DNA of 64,000 bases from an uncultured Gammaproteobacteria bacterium (GTDB taxonomy: Bacteria > Pseudomonadota > Gammaproteobacteria > Eutrophobiales > Eutrophobiaceae): the NCBI GenBank assembly GCA_943788815.1, contig CALSRS010000002.1, positions 230,636 through 294,635 on the forward strand, given 5' to 3'. A program made the position numbers and the translations under genes. This document shows positions 1,520-17,604 of this stretch, in pieces. Every line of letters begins with the position of its first letter. The first letter of the stretch is position 1. The notes beneath the pieces were generated by a model. That model worked only from the letters and a program-made list of their open reading frames with translations. It was not told the origin of the DNA and did no database searches.

Positions 1520-3019
1520 ATGGGAACTATCTATCTTTATGACCTAACCTGTTTAATCTATCAACAGGTATCAGAGACACCTTCAGGGACTATCCGGGTC
1601 GATTTACGTTATGCACACTACCTCATAACAAAACATAAAAATTCCACTGTTTTCGTTAAACAACATGGCAAGCAATTAATCATAATCCAGCATGACGAAG
1701 CTGAAGCGCTGATATTTCATCTCTTAAATAACTGGGAACTGGGATTAAATGATATACAAGATCTAAAAACCAATTCTGAATCAAACCTGGATTTCAGAAT
1801 GAAATACCACGGACTCTGGGATCCGGATCTTGATACTTTCTTCTCCATGCCATTTCATGACCGCTTTCATTTCTTGCTCAACCAGGAATTGACCGAAATA
1901 TTTGGGGTTGAATTTAGCTGGGTTAGAAAAATTCCACATGTATTAAAAATCTGGTACGCCCTGGTGGCTAGCCTGTCAAAATATCCTGCAATTTTTTTAT
2001 TACGTATCGGACAGTTTATTGGGGTGTTATTAAAAACTAAAAACCTGTTTATTGCGTATCGATTTATAATGAGCGGCCGCAAAAATAATGACTACCTGAT
2101 TGATGATATCCAAAAACATAGTAATAGAAATTATTTATATATCTATACGGCATATAACAGAGGATTTCCATTCAATGCATTGGAGGCCATTAGTGCTACA
2201 GCACCCCTGGAATATTGCGTATTTATTCATGATTTAATTATTATTTATTATTCTGAATATTTTCTACCGGTTAATAATCATGAACAAATCAACTGGATGA
2301 AACACCTGCTCACGCTAAAACCTAAAATTATTGCCAACTCAGATGAGACAAAAAAGTATCTGAATCGTTTTGCTGAAGATAATGATAGAGAATATAGTGA
2401 AATATTAACAGCCTATATTGGTGTTGAACCCTGTTTCTTGAATCAAGCTAAAAACTTGCCATCCAAATCAGAAAAAAATTATTTTGTTGTTATTGCCACA
2501 ATCGAGCCAAGAAAAAACCATTTATTATTATTAAATATATGGCGTGACATGGCACAGAATAGATTACTCGACCCTATGCCAGAGCTCTACCTGGTGGGAA
2601 AAAGAGGATGGGAGAATGAAAATGTCATCGACATGGTTGAACGATGCAAACCTATCAATGGACTCGTTCATGAAGCCTCAAACCTGAGTGATAAAGAGTT
2701 GACCAATCTCGTAACTGGCGCACGTGCCTTGCTCTACCCTACTTTTGCTGAAGGATGGGGTATGCCAGTCGTTGAAGCATTAACGCTGGGTGTACCTGTC
2801 ATATGTTCAGATATTCCAGAACTTAAAGAATCTGGTCAAAATATCCCGGACTATCTCCATCCAGTAGACGGACTTGGCTGGATGAATACCATTATAGACT
2901 ATTGCGATCCTGATTCTGCACTTAGAAGTGCACAACTTGCCAGAATGAATCTTTTTAATCCACCTACCTGGGAAGAACATTTTAATTTAGTTTCAGAAAA
3001 ATTATTTGACGAACAATAG
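1520..3019 (+). CDS. GT-B fold (GT4) glycosyltransferase, WcbB-like capsular polysaccharide glycosyltransferase
   Basis: Motifs HDLI..YYSEYF, ANS.ETK, TIEPRKNH, GKRGWENE and PTFAEGWGMPVVEAL (EX7E). Confidence 0.85.
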   Translation: MGTIYLYDLTCLIYQQVSETPSGTIRVDLRYAHYLITKHKNSTVFVKQHGKQLIIIQHDEAEALIFHLLNNWELGLNDIQDLKTNSESNLDFRMKYHGLWDPDLDTFFSMPFHDRFHFLLNQELTEIFGVEFSWVRKIPHVLKIWYALVASLSKYPAIFLLRIGQFIGVLLKTKNLFIAYRFIMSGRKNNDYLIDDIQKHSNRNYLYIYTAYNRGFPFNALEAISATAPLEYCVFIHDLIIIYYSEYFLPVNNHEQINWMKHLLTLKPKIIANSDETKKYLNRFAEDNDREYSEILTAYIGVEPCFLNQAKNLPSKSEKNYFVVIATIEPRKNHLLLLNIWRDMAQNRLLDPMPELYLVGKRGWENENVIDMVERCKPINGLVHEASNLSDKELTNLVTGARALLYPTFAEGWGMPVVEALTLGVPVICSDIPELKESGQNIPDYLHPVDGLGWMNTIIDYCDPDSALRSAQLARMNLFNPPTWEEHFNLVSEKLFDEQ

Positions 3020-3120
3020 ATTCAGTTGACTCCAATTCACATGGATTTCATCAATTGTAATTAAGTTAGTATCTAAGACTATTTATACTATCGGGTTATA
3101 TTAATCTCTCACTCTATTGC

Positions 3121-4020
3121 TCAACCATTAATCCTTGCCCTATGTAACATATACCATTGGTCAATGTTTTCCAATATCCATTTTTTCAAACGAATATTAA
3201 TCATCTCTGCAAAATATTCATCGCTCTGCCCTAAATACTCAGGACTGGAAAGATAGATTGGATTGTCATAGTTAACCTGAAAGCTGGTTTTATATAAGCG
3301 TTTACATAAACCTAATACTATTGGTGCATCAAATCTCCTTGCAAGCGTTATTGCATAGTAGATATTTGATCTATCAGATATGGTTCCATTAAATACTGGC
3401 GCTACAATTTTATTATTACTAAATTCATCCATGGCCAGTCCAACGGATTCCCCTGCAGCTAGAACTTTGAAGAGTTTTCGTGTCCCCTGATAATCAGGCG
3501 TTATTAAATCATAACCTATCCTTTTTCTGGCAGTGATTAATAATTTTCGCTGAAAACGATTGGGGATTTTTTCAAACATAACATTAAGTTTAAAACCCTG
3601 GTTTGACACGGACATGGCCAGAATTTCCCAGTTACCCAGGTGTGGAAATAAAAACACAACCGGCTTATTTTTATCTAATCTGTGTAATACGTTAAGATCG
3701 TTCTCTTCTATATTTTTTCCAATATTGAGTTTATCTAACACGGCCATTTCTGAGAGGGTACGGGCAATGTTTTGCCACATGACATCTGAAGTGAGCAACT
3801 TTTGCTCATTGGTGATCTCAGGGATTAATAACTGGAGATTCGCTGAGGTATCTAAATTGGCTTGTTTAAATCGTTTCTTTGCCAACTTGCCAACAAATGC
3901 ACCAAATCCTGATACCTGATTAAGTGGAAACAACCTGAGAAAGGAAAATGTCAGATAATCGATGCCACCCCAAAATGGATGTAAAATCCAATACTCAATA
4001 AATCGTAATTTCATTAACAA
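3121..4020 (-). CDS. LpxL/HtrB-family lipid acyltransferase (true start possibly ATG at 4014)
   Basis: Catalytic H(X)4E motif HLGNWE, C-terminal QWYMLHR and a hydrophobic N-terminus. Confidence 0.8.
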   Translation of the reverse strand: MLMKLRFIEYWILHPFWGGIDYLTFSFLRLFPLNQVSGFGAFVGKLAKKRFKQANLDTSANLQLLIPEITNEQKLLTSDVMWQNIARTLSEMAVLDKLNIGKNIEENDLNVLHRLDKNKPVVFLFPHLGNWEILAMSVSNQGFKLNVMFEKIPNRFQRKLLITARKRIGYDLITPDYQGTRKLFKVLAAGESVGLAMDEFSNNKIVAPVFNGTISDRSNIYYAITLARRFDAPIVLGLCKRLYKTSFQVNYDNPIYLSSPEYLGQSDEYFAEMINIRLKKWILENIDQWYMLHRARING

Positions 4021-4086
4021 TTATTTTCTAAATTTGGTATTTTACTTATATTAAATTTTTAATTAGCAGCCTGGATTATTCAACCA

Positions 4087-4908
4087 ATGATTTCTAATAT
4101 TCTGAAAATTTCCGCCCGTAATCCGGGATTAAGTTGGAAAAAACAATATAAGCGCCATTGGTTTGGCGGATGTTCTCTAAAATCTAACTGGATGAATGCA
4201 TTATCTACTACCTTCCCTTACGCTGAAAGGTTTTTTATAGAATCAGTCAAACAATATCAATCCCAAATACAGGACCCTGAGCTTGCTGAACAGGTAAAAG
4301 GATTTATCGGTCAAGAATCAGCACATCGTGTTGAGCATGACCGTTTCAATAAATTATTAATCTCAGAAGGTTACCCCGTTAAAAAAATGGAAGCGCGTGT
4401 GGATAAGCTTTTTAACTGGGTGAGAAAAAATCCTGACCCTGAAGTCAAGCTGGCACTAACATGTGCGCTGGAACATTTTACGACCATACTTTGTACAGAA
4501 GTTCTAAAAACACCTGCGTTTCATGAACCCATGCAGGATGAACATAAACGATTATGGTGTTGGCACTGCCTTGAAGAGATTGAACACAAAACCGTAGCTT
4601 ATGATGTTTACAATTCTATCAAGGGGAGTTATAGAAAAAGAATCATAGAAATGATTCATGCTTCAGTTGTTCTATGGTTAGTATTGCTCACAACGATGAT
4701 GGAATATCAACGGTACGATGGACGCCTGTTTAATTTGAAGGATTGGTGGGTGTTAATTACATGGGGTTTCATATGGCCAGGGCTATTAACGAGACTAATT
4801 CCTAATTATTTTCGATATTATAAAAAGGATTATCATCCATCTCACATGCATGACCAGGTACTTATAGAAACATGGCGGGGAAAACTGGGGTTTAATAAAA
4901 AAGATTAG
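4087..4908 (+). CDS. 'Predicted metal-dependent hydrolase' family protein with paired ExxH motifs (probable di-iron enzyme)
   Basis: Motifs FPYAERFFI, FIGQESAHRVEH, ALEHFT, WHCLEEIEHKTVAYDV and YYKKDYHP. Confidence 0.8.
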   Translation: MISNILKISARNPGLSWKKQYKRHWFGGCSLKSNWMNALSTTFPYAERFFIESVKQYQSQIQDPELAEQVKGFIGQESAHRVEHDRFNKLLISEGYPVKKMEARVDKLFNWVRKNPDPEVKLALTCALEHFTTILCTEVLKTPAFHEPMQDEHKRLWCWHCLEEIEHKTVAYDVYNSIKGSYRKRIIEMIHASVVLWLVLLTTMMEYQRYDGRLFNLKDWWVLITWGFIWPGLLTRLIPNYFRYYKKDYHPSHMHDQVLIETWRGKLGFNKKD

Positions 4909-4962
4909 GATTTAGCTGCAACTCAATTAGAGTTGCATACAAATCATGAACACCTCGCTTCA

Positions 4963-6345
4963 TTACTCTCGTTTTTTAATCACCATTGGTAGTCCGTTAC
5001 TCGGCCTGAGCGTTAATCTACATTCATATCCAGGAGTAAATCGTGGACTCATACTTAATGAAAAGTTCTGCATTATGCTAGCCAGGCAAATAGTCGCTTC
5101 CATTAATCCAAACGCCGCACCAAGACAGAATCTCGGGCCTGCACTAAAAGGAACATAAGCGTATTTATCATGTTTATGAGGCCAACCATCCATAAAACGC
5201 TCAGGGATAAAGTGATTGGGCTTATGCCATAATAATTCATGCCGGTGTAATAACCACGGTATCACCAGCATAATTGAATCTTTTGGTACATTGCGATCAC
5301 AGATAGTCTCTTCTTCCAGTGCTACACGAGAAAGTACTGGAACAGGTGGATATAGCCTCATCGCTTCCTCAAAAATAGCGCGGGTATACTTTAAACTGGA
5401 AATATCCTCATACCTGGCAGGTCGACCATTGAGGACGATTTTTAATTCTTCTAATAACTTTTCTTCCACATGGGGATATTGAGATATTAAATAGATAGCC
5501 CATGCTAAAGAATTAGCTGTTGTCTCATGTCCGGCCATTAATATGACGACCGCTTCATTTCTGATCTGTTCTGATGACATACGTGTAATCGAACTTTCTG
5601 AGTCTTGTACTGCGAGCAATTGAGACAACAAGGTGTTATTTCTCAATTTTCCTGCATTACCCATCGCTATGATATCTTCAACAATGACGTGTATTTTTCC
5701 TGCATTATGAGAAACCCGACGTCGTTGAGGCATGTTGGGTAACCACTTTGGCCAGCCAAAAAATGCAGACAAATCAAATTGTTCGACACTGGCTTGAAAA
5801 TCCGCAAATCCTTCAACAATCTGTTTAGCCTTGTTCAGTCCCAGTGGGTAGTCAAACATGGACTGGCTGATAATTTCAGCCGTCAACCACGCCATCTCTG
5901 GCAGGATCATGACTTCCTTATCTATATGTTCTTTTTTCCAACGATCACATGTATCTGCAACCACGTCAGCCATAATATTTCCGTATGTCTGAAAATGGGA
6001 TGGGTGAAAAGCAGGTTGTTCTAAACGGCGGCGTTCCCGCCAAAGTGCCCCATCACTAACAAACAAACCATCTCCTAAAAGTGGTTCTAATGCTTTGCGC
6101 ATATATGGGCTTTTTCTTTCATAATTATCGTTATTTTTTACGAGTACATGCTCAACTGTCGCTGGGCTATTTGCGACATACATATGCTGGTTCATCACTG
6201 GCCCACCAAAAAACTCTTCCTGGTAAGCCGAGGTAGGCCAAATAGAGAGTAAATCCTTGCGTAGCATCCATAATAGTTTGAGGGGCCCTGGGTAATCGTT
6301 CAAAGGTGTTGGCCGTACTGGAATAATTTGGTTATTATCAATCAT
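4963..6345 (-). CDS. Cytochrome P450
   Basis: I-helix AGHETT, K-helix EAMR, PERF and heme-thiolate motif FSAGPRFCLG. Confidence 0.95.
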   Translation of the reverse strand: MIDNNQIIPVRPTPLNDYPGPLKLLWMLRKDLLSIWPTSAYQEEFFGGPVMNQHMYVANSPATVEHVLVKNNDNYERKSPYMRKALEPLLGDGLFVSDGALWRERRRLEQPAFHPSHFQTYGNIMADVVADTCDRWKKEHIDKEVMILPEMAWLTAEIISQSMFDYPLGLNKAKQIVEGFADFQASVEQFDLSAFFGWPKWLPNMPQRRRVSHNAGKIHVIVEDIIAMGNAGKLRNNTLLSQLLAVQDSESSITRMSSEQIRNEAVVILMAGHETTANSLAWAIYLISQYPHVEEKLLEELKIVLNGRPARYEDISSLKYTRAIFEEAMRLYPPVPVLSRVALEEETICDRNVPKDSIMLVIPWLLHRHELLWHKPNHFIPERFMDGWPHKHDKYAYVPFSAGPRFCLGAAFGLMEATICLASIMQNFSLSMSPRFTPGYECRLTLRPSNGLPMVIKKRE

Positions 6346-6374
6346 ATGCTAATGAATTATATACGTTTTATCTA

Positions 6375-7157
6375 TTGGAAGGCATCGTAATTAACATCAG
6401 GTTCAACAATATCATTATTACAGGCGCCAGTAATGGCCTGGGAAATGCGTTAGCCAAACGTTATGCAGATTCTGGCGTTCACCTTGGCTTGATTGGCAGA
6501 CATCAAGACCGTTTAAATCAAACGGCCAAGTATTGTCGCGATAAAGGCGCTATTGTTGAATCAGTCAGTATGGACATCCGAGACAGGGAGAATCTCATTG
6601 ACTGGATATTACGATTTGATTCTAACTTTCCTGTAGACCTGATAATAGCCAATGCGGGTGTAATGTATTCAAGTGTCCCAGGTCATCCCACGGAACAAAA
6701 AATAATAATTGATGAAACATTTGATGTTAATTTCAATTCCGTCATTAATACAGTCAATCCTATGTTAGAACGAATGCAGAAAAGAAAGCATGGAAGTGCC
6801 GTCATTATTAGTTCGCTGTCTGCTTACCATGGGATACCCACCTTCCCTGCATACTCCGCAAGCAAGGTCGCAATAAAAGCTTACTATGAAGCAATTCGTG
6901 GCATCTACGCCAGAGACAATGTAAATATAACTATCGTTTGTCCCAGCTATGTGAACACCGATATGACCAAAACTTTGAATATTAATAAATTTATGCTGAC
7001 GTCAATAGATAAGGCGGTTGATAAAATTATTACGGGGATAGAGAAACGTAAACCACTGATCAGTTTTCCCTGGTTTCACACCCTGGGTATATCTTTACTG
7101 CGACTTATTCCTGACCGGATCGCTGATCGAATATTATTAATGGTCCTGGGGAAATAA
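6375..7157 (+). CDS. Short-chain dehydrogenase/reductase, WcbP/RkpH-like; start codon uncertain (TTG 6375 or ATT 6390)
   Basis: TGASNGLG Rossmann motif, NAG, catalytic Ser and YSASK; sits within a wcbR/wcbT-like locus. Confidence 0.88.
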   Translation: MEGIVINIRFNNIIITGASNGLGNALAKRYADSGVHLGLIGRHQDRLNQTAKYCRDKGAIVESVSMDIRDRENLIDWILRFDSNFPVDLIIANAGVMYSSVPGHPTEQKIIIDETFDVNFNSVINTVNPMLERMQKRKHGSAVIISSLSAYHGIPTFPAYSASKVAIKAYYEAIRGIYARDNVNITIVCPSYVNTDMTKTLNINKFMLTSIDKAVDKIITGIEKRKPLISFPWFHTLGISLLRLIPDRIADRILLMVLGK

Positions 7158-7202
7158 AAGTATGTGATTATAATCCATAAAAACTTGCACTGAAGTTAAG
7201 AC

Positions 7203-7237
7203 ATCCTCCACCTTACACCTCACTCTTCACCCCTCAC
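7203..7237. repeat. Degenerate heptamer tandem repeat, 5 units, consensus ACCTCAC (GTGAGGT on the minus strand)
   Basis: atcctcc-accttac-acctcac-tcttcac-ccctcac, in the gap between two convergent genes. Confidence 0.6.
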
Positions 7238-7242
7238 ATTTT

Positions 7243-8523
7243 CTATCCAAACACCTTAGCGGCACGTTCCGCACTCCATAAGGCGGATTCCATATAACCG
7301 CCGCTTATATAATCACCACAAAATGATATTTTCCTCTTGTCCATAGCATGCATAAAATCACAGGCCCGTTTGACATGGCCAGTAGAATGAAATGGCACGC
7401 CATAAGGATGTCTAGTTATATATACATGCTCAATCCATGAACTAAATCCGGGAAATATCGTTTCAATTTCATTAATACAACATGATGTAATGTCATCATC
7501 TGACATTGCCGCTAGCGTTGCTGATTGTGGATAGCAAACCCAGGGTTGAATGATGGACTGTCCAGACGGGACCATTTCCCTATTTTTTTGTGACGCATCA
7601 GTCAAGTAACTAATCATCCCCTCTCGTTGATGTAACAGAAATGACCAGACGCCTTTCTCAATTGGCCTATCCAGAAAAAAAGTTGGTAGTGAAAACTGTG
7701 GAATATTAATTTCATCAAGAAATTTATGGGCCTCTCCCCAGGAATCTGGAACCATTTTGGATGCCACATGAGGAGTAGTTGCCACTACGATATGGTCTGC
7801 CTTGATCACATCATTTTCCAATTGCACCCCTATTGGCTTCCCATTCTCTTCGACTAATCCCAATACTGGTGATTCTAAAGCAACGGGGATTTGCTTTGAC
7901 ATTGCCTTGTGTAATGAGGAGACCCCCCCTGTTAGCGACAGATATTCTGTAAAAAGAATAATGTGTATCAACCTGTGCATATGATGCAAGCTGACTGCCA
8001 TATCTTCAGGTTCTGACAATGCACCCACCTGCGTCAAAGGCTGTATGATACTTTTATATATTGCTGAATTTGAATTATCAATTACTGCATTGATATCATC
8101 AGCTTTTGCATAATAATTTAAAGCATACGGGTCCATTTCATATTTAATAAATGTCTTTGCCAAGTAAAGACCTAATTGTAGATTGCCCGCTACTCCATAA
8201 GACTGATACCAGGGTAAATATCGATTAAATAAAAACGAGCCTTTCTTTAAATTATCATCATAGATTCGAGTATATCCTCTTATCTTTCTTAGATTTGATT
8301 GCATCCCGGATTCATAAATAAAGGCCAGTGCCCGGCGATAAGATGAGTGGTAATACTGTGTGCCAACGTCGACAATATCTTGCGTACCAGGACGTTGATA
8401 GGTCATTGCACGCCCACCTACCCTCTCGCTAGATTCCAGGACTTGCACCTCGTGTCCTTTTTTCAGAAAGTAATGTGCAGCCCCTAAACCAGCAATACCA
8501 GCTCCGATAATGACGACTTTCAT
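7243..8523 (-). CDS. FAD-dependent oxidoreductase (amine oxidase/protoporphyrinogen oxidase-like superfamily)
   Basis: N-terminal IIGAGIAGLGAA, then E..ERVGGRAMT and DVGTQY; C-terminal CGDYISGGYMESALWSAERAA. Confidence 0.85.
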   Translation of the reverse strand: MKVVIIGAGIAGLGAAHYFLKKGHEVQVLESSERVGGRAMTYQRPGTQDIVDVGTQYYHSSYRRALAFIYESGMQSNLRKIRGYTRIYDDNLKKGSFLFNRYLPWYQSYGVAGNLQLGLYLAKTFIKYEMDPYALNYYAKADDINAVIDNSNSAIYKSIIQPLTQVGALSEPEDMAVSLHHMHRLIHIILFTEYLSLTGGVSSLHKAMSKQIPVALESPVLGLVEENGKPIGVQLENDVIKADHIVVATTPHVASKMVPDSWGEAHKFLDEINIPQFSLPTFFLDRPIEKGVWSFLLHQREGMISYLTDASQKNREMVPSGQSIIQPWVCYPQSATLAAMSDDDITSCCINEIETIFPGFSSWIEHVYITRHPYGVPFHSTGHVKRACDFMHAMDKRKISFCGDYISGGYMESALWSAERAAKVFG

Positions 8524-8563
8524 GATTTGAAATGTTTAAATTAAAAATGGAGTTGTGTGACTG

Positions 8564-9940
8564 TTAGACAAACTTGTAAACAGGTTTCTTTTTCAGTGCC
8601 TTTAATTCGCGTGAGACGATGTCAATCGTTGAACGAATTTCTTCTTCGGTATGTGATGAGCTCAGAAAGAAACGTAACCTGGCAGCACGCTCTTCTACTG
8701 CCGGATAAATTATGGGTTGTACATTAACTCCATGCTCATACAAAAGATTAGACAATTTTGCCGCAATAAGTGAACTTCCAACAATAACCGGAATTACTGA
8801 ATAACCTTCGCAATATCCCGTATCCAAACCAGCATTTTTGGCAAGTTCAAAGAACAGATTCGCATTCGACTGGAGTTTTGTCACGCGCTCAGGTTCTTCT
8901 TTTAGTATATGCAATGCCTCCAGGGCTGCCGCAGCTACTGGAGGCGACATACCCACACTGTAAACAAAGCCTGGTGAAGTATATTTAAGATTTTCAATTA
9001 AAGAATGCTTGCCACAGACATAACCACCACATGCTGCCAGGGATTTACTTAAAGTACCCATTAAAATATCTATTTGATCTGCGTTAATATTGAAATGCTC
9101 TGCTATACCAAATCCTTTCTTTCCCAAAACACCAATTGAATGAGCTTCATCAACCATCAGAAAAACTTTGTGGTGGTTTTTTATTTCTATAAATTTTGGA
9201 ATATCAGGAATGTCTCCATCCATGCTGTACATGCCCTCGGTAACGATCAATACCCGCTCATATTGTCGCCGATTATTTTCGAGCATCTGGTTTAGTGATT
9301 GAAAATCATTATGTGGAAACGTCAAACGTTTTGAACCTGAGAGTATTGCTCCTTGGATAATACTATTGTGAGCTAATGAATCATGTAGGATTAAATCCTT
9401 TTTACCAAACAAACTACCTATGGTGGTGACATTTGTAGCATGCCCACTGACATAAACTACACAATCCTCTGTACCATGAACTTCTGCCAACGCAATTTCT
9501 AACTCACGGTGTATAGGACGTTCTCCAGATACTGGTCTACTGGCTGATGCTGATGTGCCATAATGGTCGATAGCAGTTTTCGCTGCCTTGGATACTCGGG
9601 GATGACCATTTAATCCAAGATAGTTATAGCTTGAATAATTAATGAATTTTCGACCATCGATGGATGTTGAATTATTTGCCACCCCAGTATGGCAACGAAA
9701 AAATGGGTTTTGGATTCCAAATTTTTCAGCTGCACTAGCTTGAATATGTAATTGTTTTAGACCTGGCAAATCATCAATATTGTAATATTCTGCAGGAATC
9801 TCTTTCTTAAAAGCCGTTAGATTTGCTTTTTCCCGCACATCGTATGTGTTCCCGGTTTTTTGCCGTTGACGCATACGGTCTATCAGCCGTTTCTTATGCT
9901 CGCTTGATAAGCCGAATAAATTTTTACCGCTTTCTGTCAT
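8564..9940 (-). CDS. wcbT: PLP-dependent alpha-oxoamine synthase (BioF/serine palmitoyltransferase family), WcbT/RkpG-type
   Basis: Motifs SYNYLGL, DSLAHNS, DEAHS, PLP-lysine GTLSKS and ARLRFF; ATGA overlap with the PKS stop codon. Confidence 0.85.
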   Translation of the reverse strand: MTESGKNLFGLSSEHKKRLIDRMRQRQKTGNTYDVREKANLTAFKKEIPAEYYNIDDLPGLKQLHIQASAAEKFGIQNPFFRCHTGVANNSTSIDGRKFINYSSYNYLGLNGHPRVSKAAKTAIDHYGTSASASRPVSGERPIHRELEIALAEVHGTEDCVVYVSGHATNVTTIGSLFGKKDLILHDSLAHNSIIQGAILSGSKRLTFPHNDFQSLNQMLENNRRQYERVLIVTEGMYSMDGDIPDIPKFIEIKNHHKVFLMVDEAHSIGVLGKKGFGIAEHFNINADQIDILMGTLSKSLAACGGYVCGKHSLIENLKYTSPGFVYSVGMSPPVAAAALEALHILKEEPERVTKLQSNANLFFELAKNAGLDTGYCEGYSVIPVIVGSSLIAAKLSNLLYEHGVNVQPIIYPAVEERAARLRFFLSSSHTEEEIRSTIDIVSRELKALKKKPVYKFV

Positions 9941-12900
9941 TGAATAAGACGCTTCGAACCATCTCTGGCATTGATTGCATCATCGGATATAGATTTGAGT
10001 TCATCTTCTGTAAGGTTTTCTGCATGAATTTTTGCCAGTGAGGTAACTATCTCATCTACATCACTATTGCTTTCACCGTGTAAATCTGCCGGTTCAAGCA
10101 TGTTATTTATTCTATTTGCAAGACTATCCAGGGTAACGTTATCTGCCAGGGTCATCACTGGGAGATTAATACCTAATTTATTTTCTATAGTTGATGCCAG
10201 CTCCATTGCCATTAATGAATCTATCCCCAAATCCTGAATAGTACAGTTATGAGCTATTTTTTCTTCTGGCATCTGCAATATTCTTGCAATCTCACATATC
10301 AGGAAATTTACTATAAATGGCTGGCGTTCAGAGTCATCTAAGCGTGATAAAGTGCCATAGAGATCTTCCCCTTCAAGATGATCATGCCCTGACTGTCCAT
10401 GCAAAATATCTTTAAACAAATGTGAATTAATTATAGGTAATGCACGTTTTAATGCCTGCCAGTTGGCATTGAATACAATCGTCTCAACATGTTCGGACAT
10501 TATTAATGTCTCCATGGCATTAAAAGCCTGTTTACTTTTAATCCCTCCCAACCCAAGACGTTTTGTAATCCGTTCTGCAAGTTTTGTATTTCTGGCAAGA
10601 TATCCGGTATCTGTAATTGCATCCCAGGAAATTACGGTAGCGGGCAAACCTGACTTTGTCCTGAATTTAGCCAGTGACTCTAAAAATGCATTTGCAGCTA
10701 CATAATTTACTTGTCCTGGATTACCCAGGCACGTGGTCACCGAAGAATACATTACAAAAAGATCCAAACTAGAATCCCTGGTTAAACGATGTAGGTTCCA
10801 TGCCCCCTGAACTTTAGGAGCAATAACGTTATACATGGTCTCAAAGTCCATATTCTTAATGAGATTATCTTCCAGAACCATTGCTGCATGCACAATTCCT
10901 TTTAATGGATAGCTGCTTTCCTGTATATCATGCAACACAGACTGTACTTTAATGGCATCAGTAATATCACAGGCAACTAATTTAACATCCACATCTTTGT
11001 CTTGTATCTCTTTTAATGCAATTTCATTTTCCAGTGAAATTGAACCTGATCTACTTAATAAGACAAGGTGCCGAGCACCTTTATCTGCAAGCCAGTTTGC
11101 AGTTGACAGTCCAAATCCACTTAATCCACCTGTTACCATATAGGTTGCATTTCGATTTAATTCCAGATTTTGCTTATTGAGCTTTGCATGAATTTTCAAC
11201 GTGCTGGTATTGTGAGAGATAACCACCTTACCTATATGATGAGATTGCTGCATAAAGCGAAATGCACCACTGACATCAGAAGTTGGAAAAACCGTAAAAG
11301 GTAAAGGTCGAAATACGCCTTGTTCAAATAATGACATAACCTCGCCCATCATTTCACTTGAACGTTCCTGCTCAAATTGCAATAACTGGTCTGCATCGAC
11401 ACCATAATAGGTAATATTATTTCTAAAAGGTTTAAGGTCCAGTTTAGAATTTTCATAAAAATCCCGTTTCCCTAATTCAACAAACCGTCCAAAGGGACGC
11501 AAGACCTTGAAATTTTGAATCATTGCTTCACCGGCAAGTGAATTTAGTACAACATCAATGCCCTGATTGTCAGTCTTAGCCAATATTTCATCAGCAAATT
11601 CCAGGGTGCGCGAATCAAGTATATGGTCAACGCCAAGCAATTCTAAAAATTGACGTTTTTCACGAGTTCCAGCTGTAGCGAAAATTTCTGCGCCGCAATG
11701 GTGTGCATACTGTATTGCTGCTATACCTACACCACCTGCTGCGCCATGGATAAGGATTTTCTCTCCTTTCCTTAGTCTAGCCATATGGTTTAATGCATAA
11801 TATACGGTGAAGAATGTCGTTGGAATCGTCGCGGCTGCTTCAAAACTCCAGAATTCTGGCTTTTTAGTTACTGCATATTTTGATGCAATCACATGCGAGG
11901 AGAAACATGCCGGTGCAAGTGCAATTACTTCATCCCCAACTTCAATATGATCTATTCCTTCTCCAATATGGGTAACGACACCAGAACATTCCAGCCCCAA
12001 TGTTGGTCCGGACAATCCACCCTCAAGCATTTCGGGCGGTAATAATCCAGATGTATACATAACGTCTCTAAAATTAAGACCCGTAGCTTTCACTTCAATT
12101 TCAATTTGGTCTACAGCTGGTAGTTTTCGCTGTTTCGCATTCCATTGCAGGTTATCAATGCTTCCAGCTTTAGTAAATTCTAACTGGTATATTTTATTTA
12201 AACTTTGTAATTTTTCTCTATTAACAATTTCAGATGCAATATCACATTTTTGAAGCCTTAATGCCGATCTTATCTGCTCTGATATAATTATTTCCTCTTC
12301 ACCATCGCCAAACATGATTTCATTCCAAAGCAGTTTACTGACTTGACCGGATGATGCCTGAGTTTTCAGGTCTATCATTCGCAAGTCAACATCCGGAAAT
12401 TCATTTCTAATGACTCTTCCCATTGCCCATAATCCTGACAGGTATGGATTAGGCTGCTCATCATTTCCAATGACATTAGAACTTGTCACAGCCCCTGATG
12501 TAACCAACCAGACTGGAGGCAAGTTATTGATACTTGCAGATGCCAGGATATTTATAAAATTATTTAATCTAATGTTCGTTCTGGAAACTCCCTCACCAAT
12601 ATTTTGAAACGCTGCTCTACTAATATTGTCTTCTTTAACCGCAATATATATTATCTTAAGTGATGGACCATCGAGCTCTTCAATGCATACTTGTAGCTTT
12701 TTCTGGTCATTTTCAGACAGTAGATCAAGAGAAACAGTATCTTTGTTTTTGGGCAGAATATCGCCACTGGTTATTATTTTTGCTTTAACCCCGTCCTTGA
12801 CCATTTCTGACTTAAGAAATTTGGCAATCTTAGCTGATTCCTCATCATCATTGGTTATCAACAGACATGTAGATGTATGTTCCTGAATCTTGAGCATGTG

Positions 12901-15900
12901 GTTGCCCGACCTGGGAGGCCTTCTTGAAACAATTACATAATGATATAAATCCTTGCTTATTTCATCTGTCAAATTCAAGGTATCTTCAAAATCTGAATCC
13001 TCTAGTAAAAACATCCATTCTTCGGGATGCAATCTGGAAGACAATGGAAATTCTTCTTTAGATGACCGATGCCACCATTGAGAATTGACTAATCCCATAT
13101 TTAAATCTGCCATCCTATCGGGGCGTTGTTCTAACAGTATGAGCATGCCTGAGGATGCCAGAATATGTGACACTTGTGAAAAAACATCCCTTAATACATT
13201 ACAAGCATGGAAGCCATCAGATAATATAACGATATCAAATTCACCTTCCTTGTTTTTTTGATGCAAGCCCGAGCTGTCCGGGTCAAAGTGGGATACGGTC
13301 ACATTCAGGTTGCTACGGCACATTTCTTCTGCATGTGAAAATGAATAATCATCCATTGCTAGAATTTCATAGTCACATACACTTTCAGACAATTGAGGCA
13401 GTACATCAATACCTGAAGTTCCAGAATGATTTCTAATTTCAGCTATTCTTAATCTTCTTTTTTCTTTTGGCCATGATTGATTAATTAAGTTAACAATATT
13501 TTCCAGTATATACGCTTGAAGTGGCGATTTAATTTTTGAAATCGCCTTTGGCATACCTTTTTGTAAATCTTCAGTATCTAAATTTGGATCTGAGATTATA
13601 TTTTCAGCTCTCAAGCCGAGATTAGCCGCCTCCCTTAATGCACCTATATATTCCGGGTAGTCTGCTAATATAGAACGCCATATTTCTACAGGGTCATCAA
13701 TATCATCTGAATCGACCATCCTCCAGGAATCATCCTGTCTGTAAGCTTTGCCATCCTGCTCAAGTATACTAAGCAGATAATTCAAATAAGGTTGATATTC
13801 CTTAACTACCATTGATGACTCAATTAATGATGCAATTGTGAATTGCCCCAGATGCGCTCCAAATTCTCTGAATGTCTTCTCTGCTATCGCTGATGCCATT
13901 GCATCAAACAATGGCAATATCTGTTCGTTTAATCTGAGATCTGAACTTATCAGGCTTGGTGTATGAGAGATTTTTCTAACTTCGCTAATAAGATCATTGT
14001 TAGATGGCAATGGTGAATTCTCACCAAGATTTATCAAATTTTTAGGTATGAGTTTGTAGTTATAAAATCCTGCCGTATTATTTTTACCTTCAGATCTAGG
14101 TAATTTCCGAAACACGCAATCTACCAGCTCAGCATTTAATTTTCCGTCTTCATCATACAAATAAAATGATGCATGAATAATATTTTCTGTCGTTGACTGA
14201 ATTACACATTCACTATATTTAATATTGTCTGACAGCTCTCTTACCAATAAAGAATTTATTTCTGTTGGTAAATATGTAAAGGGAAATTGCTGACTATCAC
14301 CAAGTTGCATTAGCGTGAATAAAGAATGAAATGCTGAATCTAAAATAGTTGGGTGAATTAAATAAGCTGCGCTGTCATTTTGTTCAAAAGCAGTCCTGTC
14401 AAATTCGGTAAATACCCTCTCATCATTTGTTATGACTACCCTACTAACTTTTTGAAAATTCTCCCCATATTCCAATCCGCAAATACGTGCATTTTTATAG
14501 ACATCAGCACCAGTTATTTGAATATGGTTATCCCTATCGAGTACATCAGGGTCAAGATTATTCCGAATTTGTTTCGTAGATACAGTGTTTAATTTTCCTG
14601 TGGCATGTTCAACCCATGATTCTGTGCTTAAACGATCACGACTTTTAATACTAAACCGGTTGTCTGAACTTAGCACAAACTGTATCAGCTTGGTTTTACC
14701 ATTTTCCAGAATTAATGGTTTTCGAATTTCGAAATTGCTGATGCTGATAGTCTCATTATCAAACACAGATGCTGCTGCAGCCAATGCCATTTCTGCATAT
14801 CCCGCTGCAGGAAAAATAATCATTCCTTCAACACGATGATCTGAAAGATATGGATGTGTAAAAATATCAATATGATTTGACCAGACGCCATCTACATCAT
14901 TTAACTTAAAGCCGAGCAAGGGGTGCTCTTTACGCTTATTAGTTGCTTCTATGGAGCCAGTAAAAATAAAGTCTTCATTATTCCAAGGGTAACCAGGCAG
15001 TTGAACATGCTTACCGGGAACTGGGAAAACATTACTCAAATCAAATATTTTTTGACTAAATAAAAGTCGGTAACCTGCGCCGAGTATCGAGACCAATTCA
15101 TGTTTATCATTTTTTGATAATGTCTTATAAAAAGCACCCTGAACATCATGAATTCTTAAATTATCACGGATATAGGACTGCAACACGGGATGTGGCCCTA
15201 TTTCCACAAAATTTTTCACTCCCTGGTCTATGAGACTACTTATTGCTGCTTCAAATTCAACTGGATGCCGAATATTTTCCCACCAATACTCGGCGTTTAA
15301 TGTTGAACCTTTGACAGATTTACCACTGATTGTAGATATAAAATCGATGCTGTTTTCTTTTGGTTTTATGTCTTGCAAGTTTTCATATACATAGTTTTTG
15401 ATACTATCCATGATGTTACTATGAAACGCGTAATCGATATCGAGCTCTCGACATGTAACCGATTGTTCCTGCAACACATCAATCAATACTCGGATTGCTT
15501 CTGTGCTACCCGATACGGTAACCGAATTTGGGGAATTAATTGCTGCAATCTCCAGGTCATTTCCATGATTTTCTAAAAACGGAGTTATGTCTTCAACAGA
15601 CAGCCGTACTGCCGCCATTCGCCCTTGACCTTTTGTTTTTCCCTGAGCACTACTACGATAAAAAATAACCTTAACGGCGTCGTCTAAGTTCAGAGCACCT
15701 GCCACATACGCAGCGGCAATTTCACCAACACTGTGCCCAAGAACAAATCCAGGAAAAATCCCCATGGATTTAAGTAGATCTACAATTCCAACCTGTATAG
15801 CGAATAATAAGGGCTGTGCAACCTCGGTATATTCCAGCCCGCTGTCAGAATAATTACTGATGGTATCTAAGATCGACCAACCTGACATAGGCTCAAATAT

Positions 15901-17604
15901 TGCGTCTATTTCCTGGATAACATTACAAAACTGAGAATGCTGGACCAGTTCTTTCCCCATACCAATCCACTGAGAACCATTCCCTGAAAAAACGAACGCC
16001 ACGCCTCCCGATTGTGACATGGAATCCATTCTTACAATATTTGCAGACCGCTTACCGTCTATAAAATTCTGTAAACTATTAATAATGACTTCTAATGAGT
16101 CCCCGAAAGTCACCAACGAAAGTTTAAGCTGCTCTCTTTTTAAAGCCGAATTATAGAAAATGTCATATATCTGTTTTGAAGTTAATTCCTGATTCAACAA
16201 ATCGATAAACTGTTTTGCTCTACTTTTGAGAGACTCTTCACTCTGAGCACTTAAAAATAACGGTGGTATCCCATCGATATCATAAGTGTCTTTACTTACA
16301 GAATTCGGGATATGTTCTTCAAGGATAGTATGAGCGTTCGTTCCACCAAACCCAAAAGAATTTACTCCCATAATTAATGAGCGTTCAAGCTGATCCAGTA
16401 ATTTAGTTTTATTGACAACTTTTATATTATTTTTTGTGAAGTCAATATTTGGATTAAGCTGATTTTGATGAATAGTTGGAGGGATTAAGCGATGCTTTAA
16501 ACTAAGAATAACTTTCAAGAGACCAGCAAACCCGGACGCAGGTTCTAGATGTCCTATATTCGATTTAACTGATCCGATAAGCAATGGATTATCTGCTGAC
16601 CTGGCGCTACCGATAGCTCTTCCAATGGCTTCTACTTCAATGGGATCTCCTACCGGCGTCCCTGTTCCATGTGCTTCGATATAATCTATTTCATCGATAT
16701 TAACACCGGCTCTGGTATACACTTCATCTAATAGCCTGGATTGGGCGATACCATTTGGTACGGTCAATGCAGATTTAGTACCATCTGAATTAACACCAGT
16801 ACCGCGGATGAGTGCGTGCACAGGATCCCCATCCTTAATTGCCTGTTCATAGGGTTTTAAATAAAAAACGACGCCGCCTTCTGAACGCACATACCCATCT
16901 GCACTCGCATCAAAAACCTGGCATCGTCCTGTATTGGATAACATATTGGCCTTGGAAAATCCGATGAATGGAAAGGGACTCAATACAAGGTGTACAGCAC
17001 CGACTATGCTACTACTAGATTCACCAGACCAAATACTCGAACAGGCTTGATGTAATGCTACCAGGGAGGATGAACAGGCTGTATCTATCGCCATACTTGG
17101 ACCATGTAGATCATAAATATAGGAGATTCGATTTGCCGCGATGCTTAAGGTATTACCAGTCATAAAATAGGCATCGGCTACATTTGGATCATCCATCCTG
17201 TTATTGGCATAGTCGAGACTGGAGATACCAACATAAACAGAACAGTCGGATCCTGCGAGTTTACTTGGAACCTGCCCACCATATTCCAATGCCTCCCAGC
17301 TCATTTGTAATAATAATCGCTGCTGAGGATCCATCTGCGCAGCTTCACGAGGAGAAATACCAAAAAATTCTGGATCAAACTTGTAAATATCTGAAAGCTG
17401 TCCGGCCGATACAGTATAAGATTTACCAGAGGTCTTAGGATCTGGGTGGTAGTAATAGTCCCTGGACCATCGATCATCCTTGATTTCAGTGATGACATCT
17501 GTCCCGGAACAAAGCATTTCCCAAAATTGGTCAGGACTGTTACACGAACCTGGAAAACGACATGCCATACCCACGACAGCTATTGGTTGCTGCGATTTTT
17601 TCAA
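9937..17604 (-). CDS. wcbR: Reducing type I polyketide synthase KS-AT-DH-(pseudo-MT)-ER-KR-ACP, WcbR/RkpA-type, no thioesterase
   Basis: KS DTACSSS/HGTGT/NIGHLEPASG; AT GHSVG/YAFHS; DH HRVEGMIIFP and HPTILD; ER HGAAGGVG; KR TGGLSGFG/GNPGQVNYVAAN; ACP LGIDSLM. Confidence 0.9.
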   Translation of the reverse strand: MKKSQQPIAVVGMACRFPGSCNSPDQFWEMLCSGTDVITEIKDDRWSRDYYYHPDPKTSGKSYTVSAGQLSDIYKFDPEFFGISPREAAQMDPQQRLLLQMSWEALEYGGQVPSKLAGSDCSVYVGISSLDYANNRMDDPNVADAYFMTGNTLSIAANRISYIYDLHGPSMAIDTACSSSLVALHQACSSIWSGESSSSIVGAVHLVLSPFPFIGFSKANMLSNTGRCQVFDASADGYVRSEGGVVFYLKPYEQAIKDGDPVHALIRGTGVNSDGTKSALTVPNGIAQSRLLDEVYTRAGVNIDEIDYIEAHGTGTPVGDPIEVEAIGRAIGSARSADNPLLIGSVKSNIGHLEPASGFAGLLKVILSLKHRLIPPTIHQNQLNPNIDFTKNNIKVVNKTKLLDQLERSLIMGVNSFGFGGTNAHTILEEHIPNSVSKDTYDIDGIPPLFLSAQSEESLKSRAKQFIDLLNQELTSKQIYDIFYNSALKREQLKLSLVTFGDSLEVIINSLQNFIDGKRSANIVRMDSMSQSGGVAFVFSGNGSQWIGMGKELVQHSQFCNVIQEIDAIFEPMSGWSILDTISNYSDSGLEYTEVAQPLLFAIQVGIVDLLKSMGIFPGFVLGHSVGEIAAAYVAGALNLDDAVKVIFYRSSAQGKTKGQGRMAAVRLSVEDITPFLENHGNDLEIAAINSPNSVTVSGSTEAIRVLIDVLQEQSVTCRELDIDYAFHSNIMDSIKNYVYENLQDIKPKENSIDFISTISGKSVKGSTLNAEYWWENIRHPVEFEAAISSLIDQGVKNFVEIGPHPVLQSYIRDNLRIHDVQGAFYKTLSKNDKHELVSILGAGYRLLFSQKIFDLSNVFPVPGKHVQLPGYPWNNEDFIFTGSIEATNKRKEHPLLGFKLNDVDGVWSNHIDIFTHPYLSDHRVEGMIIFPAAGYAEMALAAAASVFDNETISISNFEIRKPLILENGKTKLIQFVLSSDNRFSIKSRDRLSTESWVEHATGKLNTVSTKQIRNNLDPDVLDRDNHIQITGADVYKNARICGLEYGENFQKVSRVVITNDERVFTEFDRTAFEQNDSAAYLIHPTILDSAFHSLFTLMQLGDSQQFPFTYLPTEINSLLVRELSDNIKYSECVIQSTTENIIHASFYLYDEDGKLNAELVDCVFRKLPRSEGKNNTAGFYNYKLIPKNLINLGENSPLPSNNDLISEVRKISHTPSLISSDLRLNEQILPLFDAMASAIAEKTFREFGAHLGQFTIASLIESSMVVKEYQPYLNYLLSILEQDGKAYRQDDSWRMVDSDDIDDPVEIWRSILADYPEYIGALREAANLGLRAENIISDPNLDTEDLQKGMPKAISKIKSPLQAYILENIVNLINQSWPKEKRRLRIAEIRNHSGTSGIDVLPQLSESVCDYEILAMDDYSFSHAEEMCRSNLNVTVSHFDPDSSGLHQKNKEGEFDIVILSDGFHACNVLRDVFSQVSHILASSGMLILLEQRPDRMADLNMGLVNSQWWHRSSKEEFPLSSRLHPEEWMFLLEDSDFEDTLNLTDEISKDLYHYVIVSRRPPRSGNHMLKIQEHTSTCLLITNDDEESAKIAKFLKSEMVKDGVKAKIITSGDILPKNKDTVSLDLLSENDQKKLQVCIEELDGPSLKIIYIAVKEDNISRAAFQNIGEGVSRTNIRLNNFINILASASINNLPPVWLVTSGAVTSSNVIGNDEQPNPYLSGLWAMGRVIRNEFPDVDLRMIDLKTQASSGQVSKLLWNEIMFGDGEEEIIISEQIRSALRLQKCDIASEIVNREKLQSLNKIYQLEFTKAGSIDNLQWNAKQRKLPAVDQIEIEVKATGLNFRDVMYTSGLLPPEMLEGGLSGPTLGLECSGVVTHIGEGIDHIEVGDEVIALAPACFSSHVIASKYAVTKKPEFWSFEAAATIPTTFFTVYYALNHMARLRKGEKILIHGAAGGVGIAAIQYAHHCGAEIFATAGTREKRQFLELLGVDHILDSRTLEFADEILAKTDNQGIDVVLNSLAGEAMIQNFKVLRPFGRFVELGKRDFYENSKLDLKPFRNNITYYGVDADQLLQFEQERSSEMMGEVMSLFEQGVFRPLPFTVFPTSDVSGAFRFMQQSHHIGKVVISHNTSTLKIHAKLNKQNLELNRNATYMVTGGLSGFGLSTANWLADKGARHLVLLSRSGSISLENEIALKEIQDKDVDVKLVACDITDAIKVQSVLHDIQESSYPLKGIVHAAMVLEDNLIKNMDFETMYNVIAPKVQGAWNLHRLTRDSSLDLFVMYSSVTTCLGNPGQVNYVAANAFLESLAKFRTKSGLPATVISWDAITDTGYLARNTKLAERITKRLGLGGIKSKQAFNAMETLIMSEHVETIVFNANWQALKRALPIINSHLFKDILHGQSGHDHLEGEDLYGTLSRLDDSERQPFIVNFLICEIARILQMPEEKIAHNCTIQDLGIDSLMAMELASTIENKLGINLPVMTLADNVTLDSLANRINNMLEPADLHGESNSDVDEIVTSLAKIHAENLTEDELKSISDDAINARDGSKRLIQ

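Follow-up and report, generated by a model that had tools for sequence, protein, structure and literature searches.

The window analysed here is a stretch of 64,000 nucleotides from contig CALSRS010000002.1 (positions 230,636 to 294,635, forward strand) of an uncultured gammaproteobacterium of the family Eutrophobiaceae (GenBank assembly GCA_943788815.1). Nine genes in its left part (Table 1) encode a type I polyketide synthase (PKS), an alpha-oxoamine synthase (AOS), a short-chain dehydrogenase/reductase (SDR), a flavin adenine dinucleotide (FAD)-dependent oxidoreductase, a cytochrome P450, a protein of family PF10118, an acyltransferase of the LpxL/LPLAT family and glycosyltransferases (GTs) of the families GT4 and GT2. 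A first-pass annotation of the letters had listed this gene set, and we found each member as a long open reading frame (ORF) with a strong family match. The nine ORFs are real genes rather than chance ORFs, because related species conserve both their order and their sequences (48-90% amino-acid identity). The genome that carries the window (G000; 3.23 Mb in 3 contigs, rated 99.2% complete) was compared with the genus members G001, G002, G003, G006, G007 and G008 and with fetched loci or contigs, which are given L-numbers below. The nearest public records are metagenome-assembled genomes (MAGs) of Candidatus Eutrophobius (Gammaproteobacteria, Ca. Eutrophobiales), and the AOS of Ca. E. brisbanensis is 89% identical to that of the window. 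Eleven sequencing runs hold at least half of the sequence words of the stretch; they are labelled marine or estuary metagenomes.

Table 1. Features of the lipid gene region, the capsule island and its borders (plain ranges are window positions; prefixed ranges refer to contigs and loci)
Feature	Position	Strand	Size	Match
GT2, 3' part of a gene with two GT2 matches	2-1462	+	857 aa (whole gene)	PF00535 (Pfam)
Start of the double-GT2 gene	G000:C2:229524 (1,111 nt left of the window)			
GT4-family glycosyltransferase	1520-3019	+	499 aa	PF00534, PF13692
Divergent LpxL/LPLAT-family acyltransferase	3121-4020	-	299 aa	PF03279, 100 bits
PF10118 protein with hydrophobic C-terminal helices	4087-4908	+	273 aa	PF10118, 268 bits
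Cytochrome P450	4963-6345	-	460 aa	PF00067, 259 bits
Classical SDR, candidate 3-ketosphinganine reductase	6375-7157	+	260 aa	PF00106, 145 bits
FAD-dependent oxidoreductase, amine-oxidase/PPOX/phytoene-desaturase superfamily	7243-8523	-	426 aa	PF01593, 110 bits
Pyridoxal phosphate (PLP)-dependent AOS, like serine palmitoyltransferase (SPT)	8564-9940	-	458 aa	PF00155
Single-module fully reducing type I PKS	9937-17604	-	2,555 aa	Pfam domains
Prc tail-specific protease, right border of the island, outside the pathway	17990-20080	+		PF17804, PF03572; NF008388, 700 bits
MsbA-related ABC transporter	23943-25754	-		TIGR02204, 798 bits, above cut-off
kpsMTED export genes	L092:4972-9265			KpsM model, 141 bits; TIGR01010 (kpsE), 290 bits; both under the curated equivalog cut-offs
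Insertion sequence (IS) element	L092:17207-18549 (G000:C2:209206-210548)		328 aa (transposase)	helix-turn-helix, rve integrase core
NeuB-TIM barrel fusion	L091:1035-2927 (G000:C2:213034-214926)		630 aa	NeuB type, SAF, AP_endonuc_2

The Pfam domains of the PKS run in the order KS-AT-DH-ER-KR-ACP, with about 650 residues that lack a Pfam match between DH and ER. The motifs DTACSS, HGTGT, GHSVG, YAFHS, HxxxGxxxxP, GGVG and GIDS are present, and Pfam matched no thioesterase in the protein. A C-methyltransferase in the DH-ER spacer was considered and rejected; residues 1172-1899 gave no Pfam match at E ≤ 0.01 and contain no ExGxGxG motif. Because both the methyltransferase match and the motif are missing, we infer that the spacer is a pseudo-methyltransferase/pseudo-ketoreductase region like that of fatty acid synthase (FAS). 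The PKS aligned over its full length, at 33-45% identity, with the PKSs of 16 loci outside the genus, Bordetella, Geobacter and Comamonas among them. One candidate for an Sfp-type phosphopantetheinyl transferase (PPTase) lies elsewhere in G000, at C1:2138644.

The start codon of the AOS gene overlaps the stop codon of the PKS gene, and the FAD gene follows 40 nt after the AOS gene. The nearest solved relative of the AOS was the SPT of Sphingobacterium (3a2b/8guh, 245 bits), with the PLP lysine aligned within GTLSKSLA; its scores against the NCBIfam models for bioF and for serine palmitoyltransferase were under the cut-offs. In a quick IQ-TREE tree of 83 sequences (the short rows L108 and L069 were left out, and row L005, which has an in-frame stop, was left out of the alignment), the window AOS fell inside a clade of 31 rows with 99% support. 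The same clade holds the capsule-linked loci of Bordetella, Comamonas, Azonexaceae and Geobacter. Homologues of the SDR stand beside PKS and AOS in L013, L094, L107, L019, L031, L016 and L025. The best PDB match of the SDR was HSD17B13 rather than a KDSR, in a comparison set that held no KDSR sequence. These results support the predicted assignment of the window core to the PKS-AOS-SDR sets of the wcbR/T/P and rkpA/G/H type, as the first-pass annotation had proposed. The first 85 or so residues of the AOS (1-85) form an N-terminal extension that solved SPTs lack and that hardly varies inside the genus, and about 55 residues continue beyond the ACP of the PKS (2500-2555). This extension and this tail may be docking elements.

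The principle of such a core is already published as a route to sphingolipids. In Pseudomonas fluorescens MYb115, the iterative PKS SgaA, the AOS SgaB, which is described as a serine-specific SPT, and the SDR SgaC yield C24-C28 sphinganines and putative phosphoglycerol sphingolipids, and 6,101 homologous clusters are reported, mostly from Burkholderia (Peters et al., Nat Commun 2025, PMC12134224). The main text of that paper contains none of the terms capsul-, wcb, rkp, glycosyl-, P450 or acyltransferase. The earlier remark that the structure of the product is not well defined is out of date, because the homologous SgaABC make C24-C28 sphinganines. Like SgaABC, the window has a single-module, putatively iterative, thioesterase-less type I PKS, an adjacent SPT-type AOS and a clustered SDR, here a candidate 3-ketosphinganine reductase, and by analogy the expected core product would be a very-long-chain sphinganine. 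Unlike SgaABC, the window adds the FAD oxidoreductase, the P450, the PF10118 enzyme, the LPLAT and GT4/GT2 genes, and it ends a kpsMTED island.

We took wcbR/wcbT/wcbP and rkpA/rkpG/rkpH to be capsule lipid genes, represented here by the loci L016-L019, L023-L025, L027 and L031. The window resembles them in its PKS (full-length identity 33-39%), AOS (54-57%) and SDR (33-38%) and in its Kps-type capsule locus, and a related GT4 is found in L019 and L031. Partners encoded beside the PKS in the canonical loci are KpsS/KpsC in 9 of them, a sulfatase-family protein in 5 and a formyltransferase in 6; none of these partners stands at the window locus. The Geobacter locus L019, for example, has the order PKS, AOS, formyltransferase, sulfatase-family protein, SDR, KpsS, half-size KpsC, GT4 and KpsD. 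In turn, the canonical loci have no FAD enzyme, P450, PF10118 protein or LPLAT.

KpsS and KpsC together make the phosphatidylglycerol-linked oligosaccharide of Kdo (3-deoxy-D-manno-octulosonic acid). Classical Kps-type capsules are described as built on this structure (PMC9597891). PF05159, the family of KpsC and KpsS, had no match in any of 41 genomes (G000, 8 of the genus, 16 of the family and 16 of the class), and the Escherichia coli control was positive. The first-pass annotation had noted that the sulfatase-like (wcbQ/rkpI) and wcbS genes are not in the window, and rightly so; for the sulfatase-like protein the absence extends to the whole of G000, as judged with one query, the L019 protein. 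No dedicated formyltransferase stands at the locus. The L019 formyltransferase matched two G000 ORFs elsewhere, of 328 and 209 aa (31-35% identity), which by their size look like Fmt and PurN.

The proteins of the window and of L019 were compared with 115 fetched loci, 84 of them with an AOS; the AOS loci had been found by searching with the AOS. The FAD enzyme was present in 8 of the 84 (four of the genus together with L013, L094, L097 and L107/L108; three of the eight are short contigs), and KpsS and/or KpsC in 9 of them, with no overlap between the two groups. Neither the sulfatase-like protein nor the formyltransferase was found in any of the 8 FAD loci. One AOS clade (SH-aLRT 99) took in seven of the eight FAD rows; the other, L107, branched elsewhere, where the tree lacks resolution. 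In L094 the genes follow each other as PKS-AOS-FAD-SDR-GT4-GT2, with identities of 44-64% (GT4 56%, GT2 48%), indicating that the glycosyltransferases stay with the lipid genes across considerable divergence. In L107, a GT4, a Wzx-like flippase and a CDP-alcohol phosphotransferase adjoin FAD-SDR-AOS-PKS. The P450, PF10118 and LPLAT genes stand between SDR and GT4 only within the genus, and L013, L094 and L107, which have PKS, AOS, FAD enzyme and SDR, lack the acyltransferase. The idea that the tailoring genes accompany the core elsewhere therefore stood in part: it held for the FAD enzyme in several lineages and for GT4 with GT2 in L094, and for the P450, the PF10118 protein and the acyltransferase only inside the genus.

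A 7.2 kb contig (L012, CAMDWI010000039.1) has a PKS, an AOS and a FAD enzyme that are 54-75% identical to those of the window, and it is the same as contig C39 of G002. It is labelled as a Klebsiella pneumoniae MAG, so that the label looks wrong or the bin contaminated. We regard as new here the sub-lineage with the FAD enzyme, its extension by P450, PF10118 protein and LPLAT, and a Kps island that has PKS lipid genes and lacks KpsS/KpsC. None of the three was found in the literature searched; the supplementary list of PMC12134224 might include them.

The first-pass annotation had pointed to the sequence left of the window as a place to look for capsule genes, and the 38.6 kb that we fetched there proved to hold a Kps-type island with kpsMTED, rml genes and large multi-domain GTs. 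Leftwards from the GT2 gene come a sulfotransferase, a PhyH-family dioxygenase, rmlD, rmlC and rmlA, followed by a 955-aa GT2-GT4 fusion and a 794-aa GT. Next stand a methyltransferase, a CMP-sugar transferase, a SIS protein, a NeuB fusion, a GHMP kinase and an IS element, and then a sialyltransferase-like/GT1 protein, an RgpF-like protein and a GT11. The far end is made up of kpsD, kpsE, kpsT and kpsM, 34-38 kb to the left, and then an FKBP gene. Poly_export and SLBB domains occur among the kps genes, and KpsM, KpsT and KpsE also match VexB, VexC and VexD, more weakly.

The island layout of G000 is shared by G003 (58-90% identity) and G002 (48-75%). In these three species the lipid end (PKS, AOS, FAD enzyme, SDR, P450, PF10118, LPLAT, GT4, double GT2, sulfotransferase, PhyH and rml) and the export end (kpsDETM and then the FKBP gene) are conserved, and the middle, about 13-20 kb long, differs from species to species, with little similarity or none. 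Group 2 capsule loci classically have conserved export and anchor genes that flank a serotype-specific middle. From the FKBP gene to prc, G000 measures about 52 kb; in L013, whose AOS is 64% identical, only PKS, AOS, FAD enzyme and SDR stand beside prc, with the FKBP gene just beyond. Because prc and the FKBP gene adjoin in L013 and bracket the island in G000, the 52 kb or so make up a single variable island of surface-structure genes, of which the lipid genes form a conserved end. Orthologues of kpsM were found in three of the four other PKS-bearing genus members (G003, G006 and G002, at 60-82%).

The GT genes next to the lipid genes were traced in the same way. Homologues of the double GT2 adjoin GT4 in G003 (58-65%), G002 (47-53%) and the metagenome contig L094 (48%). 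The GT4 itself is 81% identical in L011, 66% in G002 and 56% in L094, and its C-terminal half is 38-44% identical to the GT4 of the Geobacter (L019) and Comamonas (L031) PKS-capsule loci. Because the capsule island continues leftwards, the GT2 and possibly the GT4 may start a polysaccharide on the lipid, not merely decorate a free glycolipid. The span drawn in the first-pass annotation thus had the right genes and was too short; the conserved module also takes in the sulfotransferase, the PhyH dioxygenase and the rml genes.

Some details of the island and its surroundings were noted in passing. The IS element in the island middle, which has a small upstream ORF, is without a counterpart in G003 or G002. 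In the serotype-specific part, the NeuB-type nonulosonate synthase with its SAF domain is joined to a TIM barrel of the xylose-isomerase kind; this fusion, whose architecture is unusual, adjoins the SIS, cytidylyltransferase and GHMP-kinase genes. Six kb to the right of the PKS lies an MsbA-related ABC transporter, which could flip a lipid. The P450 (-) and SDR (+) genes diverge with predicted starts 29 nt apart (window 4963-6375), and the SDR start is TTG; unless the true start of the SDR lies further downstream, promoters and coding regions would overlap.

The model of the FAD enzyme (pLDDT 91.8) aligned with PPOX/CgoX, MAO and PDS, all at TM-scores of 0.77-0.81. By sequence, PRK07233 and HpnE match its whole length, and amine oxidases match no more than the FAD fold at its N-terminus. 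Among 400 gammaproteobacterial species genomes, with at most 4 candidates scored per genome, only G000 had a match to the enzyme at E ≤ 1e-40, and the protein atlas gave only generic amine-oxidase/PPOX-like clusters. On one contig (L103:9156-11272), a FAD homologue (44%) and the end of a PAP2_3 gene overlap, and the 10 kb upstream contain neither PKS nor AOS. PAP2_3 is the Pfam family of inositol-phosphoceramide and sphingomyelin synthases, and the overlap hints that this flavoprotein family acts on sphingolipids made by other routes. On L095 a FAD homologue adjoins a patatin and an acyl-CoA dehydrogenase. The neighbours on L103 and L095 are suggestive but weak signs of lipid work by the family.

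The nearest solved structures of the P450 are CYP97 carotenoid hydroxylases (167 bits), CYP102/BM3 and CYP4B1, and the enzymes of these CYP97, CYP102 and CYP4 matches all hydroxylate long hydrophobic chains. The acyltransferase carries the Hx4E motif as HLGNWE, and its nearest solved structures are LpxM (5kn7) and PatA. It is the second PF03279 copy of G000; the other (C1:76419) scores 190 bits. Relatives at E ≤ 1e-15 numbered 33 in 5.8 billion proteins.

For the PF10118 protein, relatives are everywhere annotated as a metal-dependent hydrolase, a sequence match to a solved structure was not obtained, and the papers found, a preprint and its journal version, merely list the accession. Its AlphaFold model (pLDDT 93.8) is a ferritin-like bundle. 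The top rows of VIA-align were CmlI (Z 13.2), R2, AurF, sMMO and R2lox, at Z 13.2-10 over about 220-237 residues, and toluene monooxygenases and, lower down, acyl-ACP desaturases and aldehyde-deformylating oxygenases also matched, so that the best matches are di-iron or Mn/Fe oxygenases; Foldseek E-values were all above 0.001, and a VIA-align Z near 13 is borderline for helical bundles. In 32 sequences, E47, E77, H80, E83, H84, E129, H130, H160, E163, E164, E166 and H167 were invariant, and this Glu/His pattern argues for a di-metal site. The protein thus has, as modelled, a ferritin-like di-metal oxygenase fold and is probably a di-iron enzyme; the label of an ExxH di-iron-type enzyme given in the first pass holds at the level of the predicted fold and the invariant Glu/His set.

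The window protein is the only PF10118 copy in G000. Orthologues (66-82%) occur in all five genus members that have the PKS set (G000, G001, G002, G003 and G006) and in neither of the two searched members without it (G007 and G008). A search of 400 gammaproteobacterial genomes gave matches at E ≤ 1e-30 in 21 of them, none above 38% identity; several copies per genome were frequent. Some genomes (G035, G253) have as many as five PF10118 paralogues, with two arranged in tandem (e.g. G035:C62:13711-15355), and named relatives at about 38% identity come from Oceanospirillaceae, Alcanivorax, Thalassolituus and Marinobacter. The G001 orthologue (L132, G001:C129:4178-4984) has one in-frame TGA, which may be a sequencing error or mark a pseudogene. 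One PF10118 homologue and one LPLAT homologue have longest contigs of equal length (36,224 and 2,438), which hints that the pair shares more distant contigs.

An LPLAT also serves a capsule that is independent of KpsC/S. VexE, of the LPLAT family (LpxL/LpxM/PatA), is reported to build the lipid end of the Vi capsule (PMC9597891). The Vi system is described there as ABC-transporter-dependent, with a dedicated LPLAT in the locus and no phosphatidylglycerol-Kdo acceptor (PMC9597891), a plan that the window island would share. VexE is a TPR-LPLAT fusion with Tyr for Asp/Glu in the motif and acylates UDP-GlcNAc (PMC9597891). The window LPLAT, unlike VexE, is a stand-alone protein with PF03279 only and a canonical Hx4E, and it is an analogue rather than a member of the VexE type, because VexE is a TPR fusion with a different motif. 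The available portion of the same report mentions no PKS or AOS for the Vi locus (PMC9597891).

The best reading of these results sees in the nine genes a lipid module that belongs to a capsule island of the Kps (ABC-transporter-dependent) type. The steps that we propose up to the sphinganine-type base follow SgaABC, and those from the FAD enzyme onward are drawn from family, fold and gene context only. The thioesterase-less FAS-like PKS would act iteratively, and a saturated, very long acyl chain would grow on its own ACP. Release would fall to the translationally coupled AOS, which would condense the chain with an amino acid under decarboxylation; the SDR would then reduce the resulting 3-keto long-chain base to a sphinganine-type base. 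The FAD enzyme, as the fixed fourth member of the sub-lineage, may oxidise the base, by C-C desaturation of the PPOX/phytoene-desaturase type or by oxidation at the amine, and the P450 and the putative di-iron PF10118 enzyme may hydroxylate or desaturate the chain. The LpxL-family acyltransferase would add a second acyl chain from acyl-ACP (N- or O-linked), perhaps from the ACP of the PKS itself, to give a ceramide-like lipid with two tails.

The GT4 would place the first sugar on this lipid. The double GT2, the sulfotransferase, the PhyH dioxygenase, the rml genes and the GT2-GT4 fusion would build a conserved linker, possibly containing rhamnose and sulfated, to which the variable middle of the island would add a species-specific polymer. 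The glycan, linked to its lipid, would be exported by KpsMTED. The module would thus take over, in this lineage, the part that the phosphatidylglycerol-Kdo acceptor from KpsS/KpsC plays in classical systems.

That an oxidised, acylated and glycosylated sphingoid lipid primes or anchors the capsule is a proposal to which we give a probability of about 0.45, somewhat under even odds. Several points weigh against it. The lipid is a prediction from the genes, and adjacency to kps genes is no proof of a covalent link between lipid and polymer. In L013, the 21 kb fetched contain neither GT nor kps genes beside the four-gene core, and L107 has a Wzx-type flippase and not a Kps exporter; because these two loci carry the core and no such exporter, the lipid does not require a Kps capsule. 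Nor is the PKS lipid a general substitute for KpsS/KpsC, because both coexist in 9 canonical wcb/rkp-type loci. G001 has the lipid genes and gave no kpsM or kpsE match (89% complete, 200 contigs).

The individual steps call for similar caution. Homologues of the FAD enzyme (38-52%) lie on 20 of 35 metagenome contigs without PKS or AOS (8 of these with at least 4 kb of flank), so the family is not specific to the pathway. The genes around the homologues on these 20 contigs yielded no family shared by three or more loci; what did recur as "families" were shadow ORFs that lie over the FAD gene. For its reaction we lean slightly toward C-C oxidation of a lipid, and the fold comparison does not separate C-C from C-N oxidation. 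Orthology of the core to SgaA/SgaB is suggested by the architecture and by the AOS clade shared with wcb-like loci, and L-serine is the most likely amino acid of the AOS, as judged only from the SgaABC homologues. The acceptor of the acyltransferase is one that we infer. RNA-library contigs from three libraries of two studies lie over the region (X6, 30 of 30 bins; X8, 29; X19, 10), but they are no sign of expression, because the cover is flat, like that of the DNA run X5, and DNA can occur in such libraries.

The lipid could instead be a free glycosphingolipid of the outer membrane, as in sphingomonads or Caulobacter, that sits beside the capsule island only through the clustering of surface genes. 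The GT4, perhaps with the GT2, would then add a short head group, and the polymer would be anchored otherwise. L013 fits such a lipid, as its core has no GT or kps gene nearby, and so does L107, where the Wzx-like flippase, GT4 and CDP-alcohol phosphotransferase suit a phospho- or glycosphingolipid of the membrane; the overlap of the L103 FAD homologue with a PAP2_3 gene points the same way. The SgaABC products are also reported as free sphinganines and phosphoglycerol sphingolipids (PMC12134224). We nevertheless consider this explanation rather unlikely, since in three species the lipid genes are contiguous with a conserved block of GT, sulfotransferase, PhyH and rml genes and form one conserved end of an island that has kpsMTED at its other end, no KpsC/KpsS was found that would give another anchor, and the module contains no separate flippase, the MsbA-related transporter being 6 kb to the right. 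Capsule anchoring stays the preferred reading. In its strongest form, a polyketide-made, oxidised and acylated glycosphingolipid would be a third kind of lipid anchor, with PKS-SPT-SDR-FAD plus P450, di-iron enzyme and LPLAT in place of KpsS/KpsC and both chains maybe from the PKS ACP; that complete version we hold to be doubtful.

Two further explanations make less of the capsule genes. Fungal clusters for fumonisin (FUM1/FUM8/FUM13) and sphingofungin combine a reducing PKS, release by an AOS, a ketoreductase, oxidative tailoring and acylation. The window shares this logic, acyl or ester transfer included, and has three oxidative enzymes, so that its product might be a diffusible, bioactive sphinganine analogue, an oxidised and esterified amino-polyol comparable to fumonisins, AAL toxins and sphingofungins, with unrelated glycan genes next to it. 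In contrast to the window, the fungal analogues are secreted toxins of eukaryotes without a glycan or capsule context, made with other oxygenase and acyltransferase families. The module, moreover, contains no exporter, regulator or self-resistance gene, its acyltransferase is of the lipid A/glycolipid LPLAT family, it is syntenic with capsule genes in three species and its nearest relatives are all capsule- or envelope-linked loci. We therefore think a diffusible analogue very unlikely, even though homologues of KDSR are noted in the fumonisin and sphingofungin clusters (PMC12134224).

Transfer of a very long acyl chain to lipid A has a precedent in rhizobial AcpXL/LpxXL. Here the PKS would supply such a chain, the LpxL-like enzyme would move it to lipid A, the P450 would hydroxylate it sub-terminally and the AOS branch would be secondary. 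The intact Hx4E of the LpxL-family enzyme, a PKS that ends in an ACP without a thioesterase and a P450 nearest to fatty-chain hydroxylases are all consistent with this, and the LPLATs of lipid A synthesis are said to prefer acyl-ACP donors (PMC9597891). It is still the least probable of the explanations weighed: the AOS is translationally coupled to the PKS and is always linked to this type of PKS in the loci examined (which were found via an AOS search), the acyltransferase is absent from L013, L094 and L107 despite their PKS, AOS, FAD and SDR genes, and a better-scoring housekeeping LpxL exists elsewhere in G000. A legionellol-type cluster, suggested by the low G+C and the PKS, was also compared and set aside; the cluster described in PMC5640695, in the part of that text available, has discrete domains and an ornithine-derived unit and does not match.

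In the available part of the Vi report, anchoring and export recognition of ABC-transporter-dependent capsules are known for two lipid ends only, phosphatidylglycerol-Kdo and the acylated N-acetylhexosamine (HexNAc) of Vi, and its authors ask whether further variants of the lipid end exist (PMC9597891). The role of the PKS and AOS genes in capsule loci (wcb, rkp-1) has long been open, and the 2025 sphingolipid paper is silent on capsules in its main text. The locus described here is a natural experiment, in which the exporter and the PKS-sphingolipid genes are kept, the partners for Kdo transfer, sulfatase-like function and formyl transfer are missing, and another tailoring set is present instead. 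If the lipid is a free membrane glycosphingolipid, PKS-made sphingolipids would be extended to marine Gammaproteobacteria, with new oxidative chemistry. If it is the anchor, bacterial sphingolipid synthesis would be linked to capsule assembly, and a flavoprotein clade, the PF10118 family of "predicted metal-dependent hydrolases" and a small LPLAT clade would gain their first functions.

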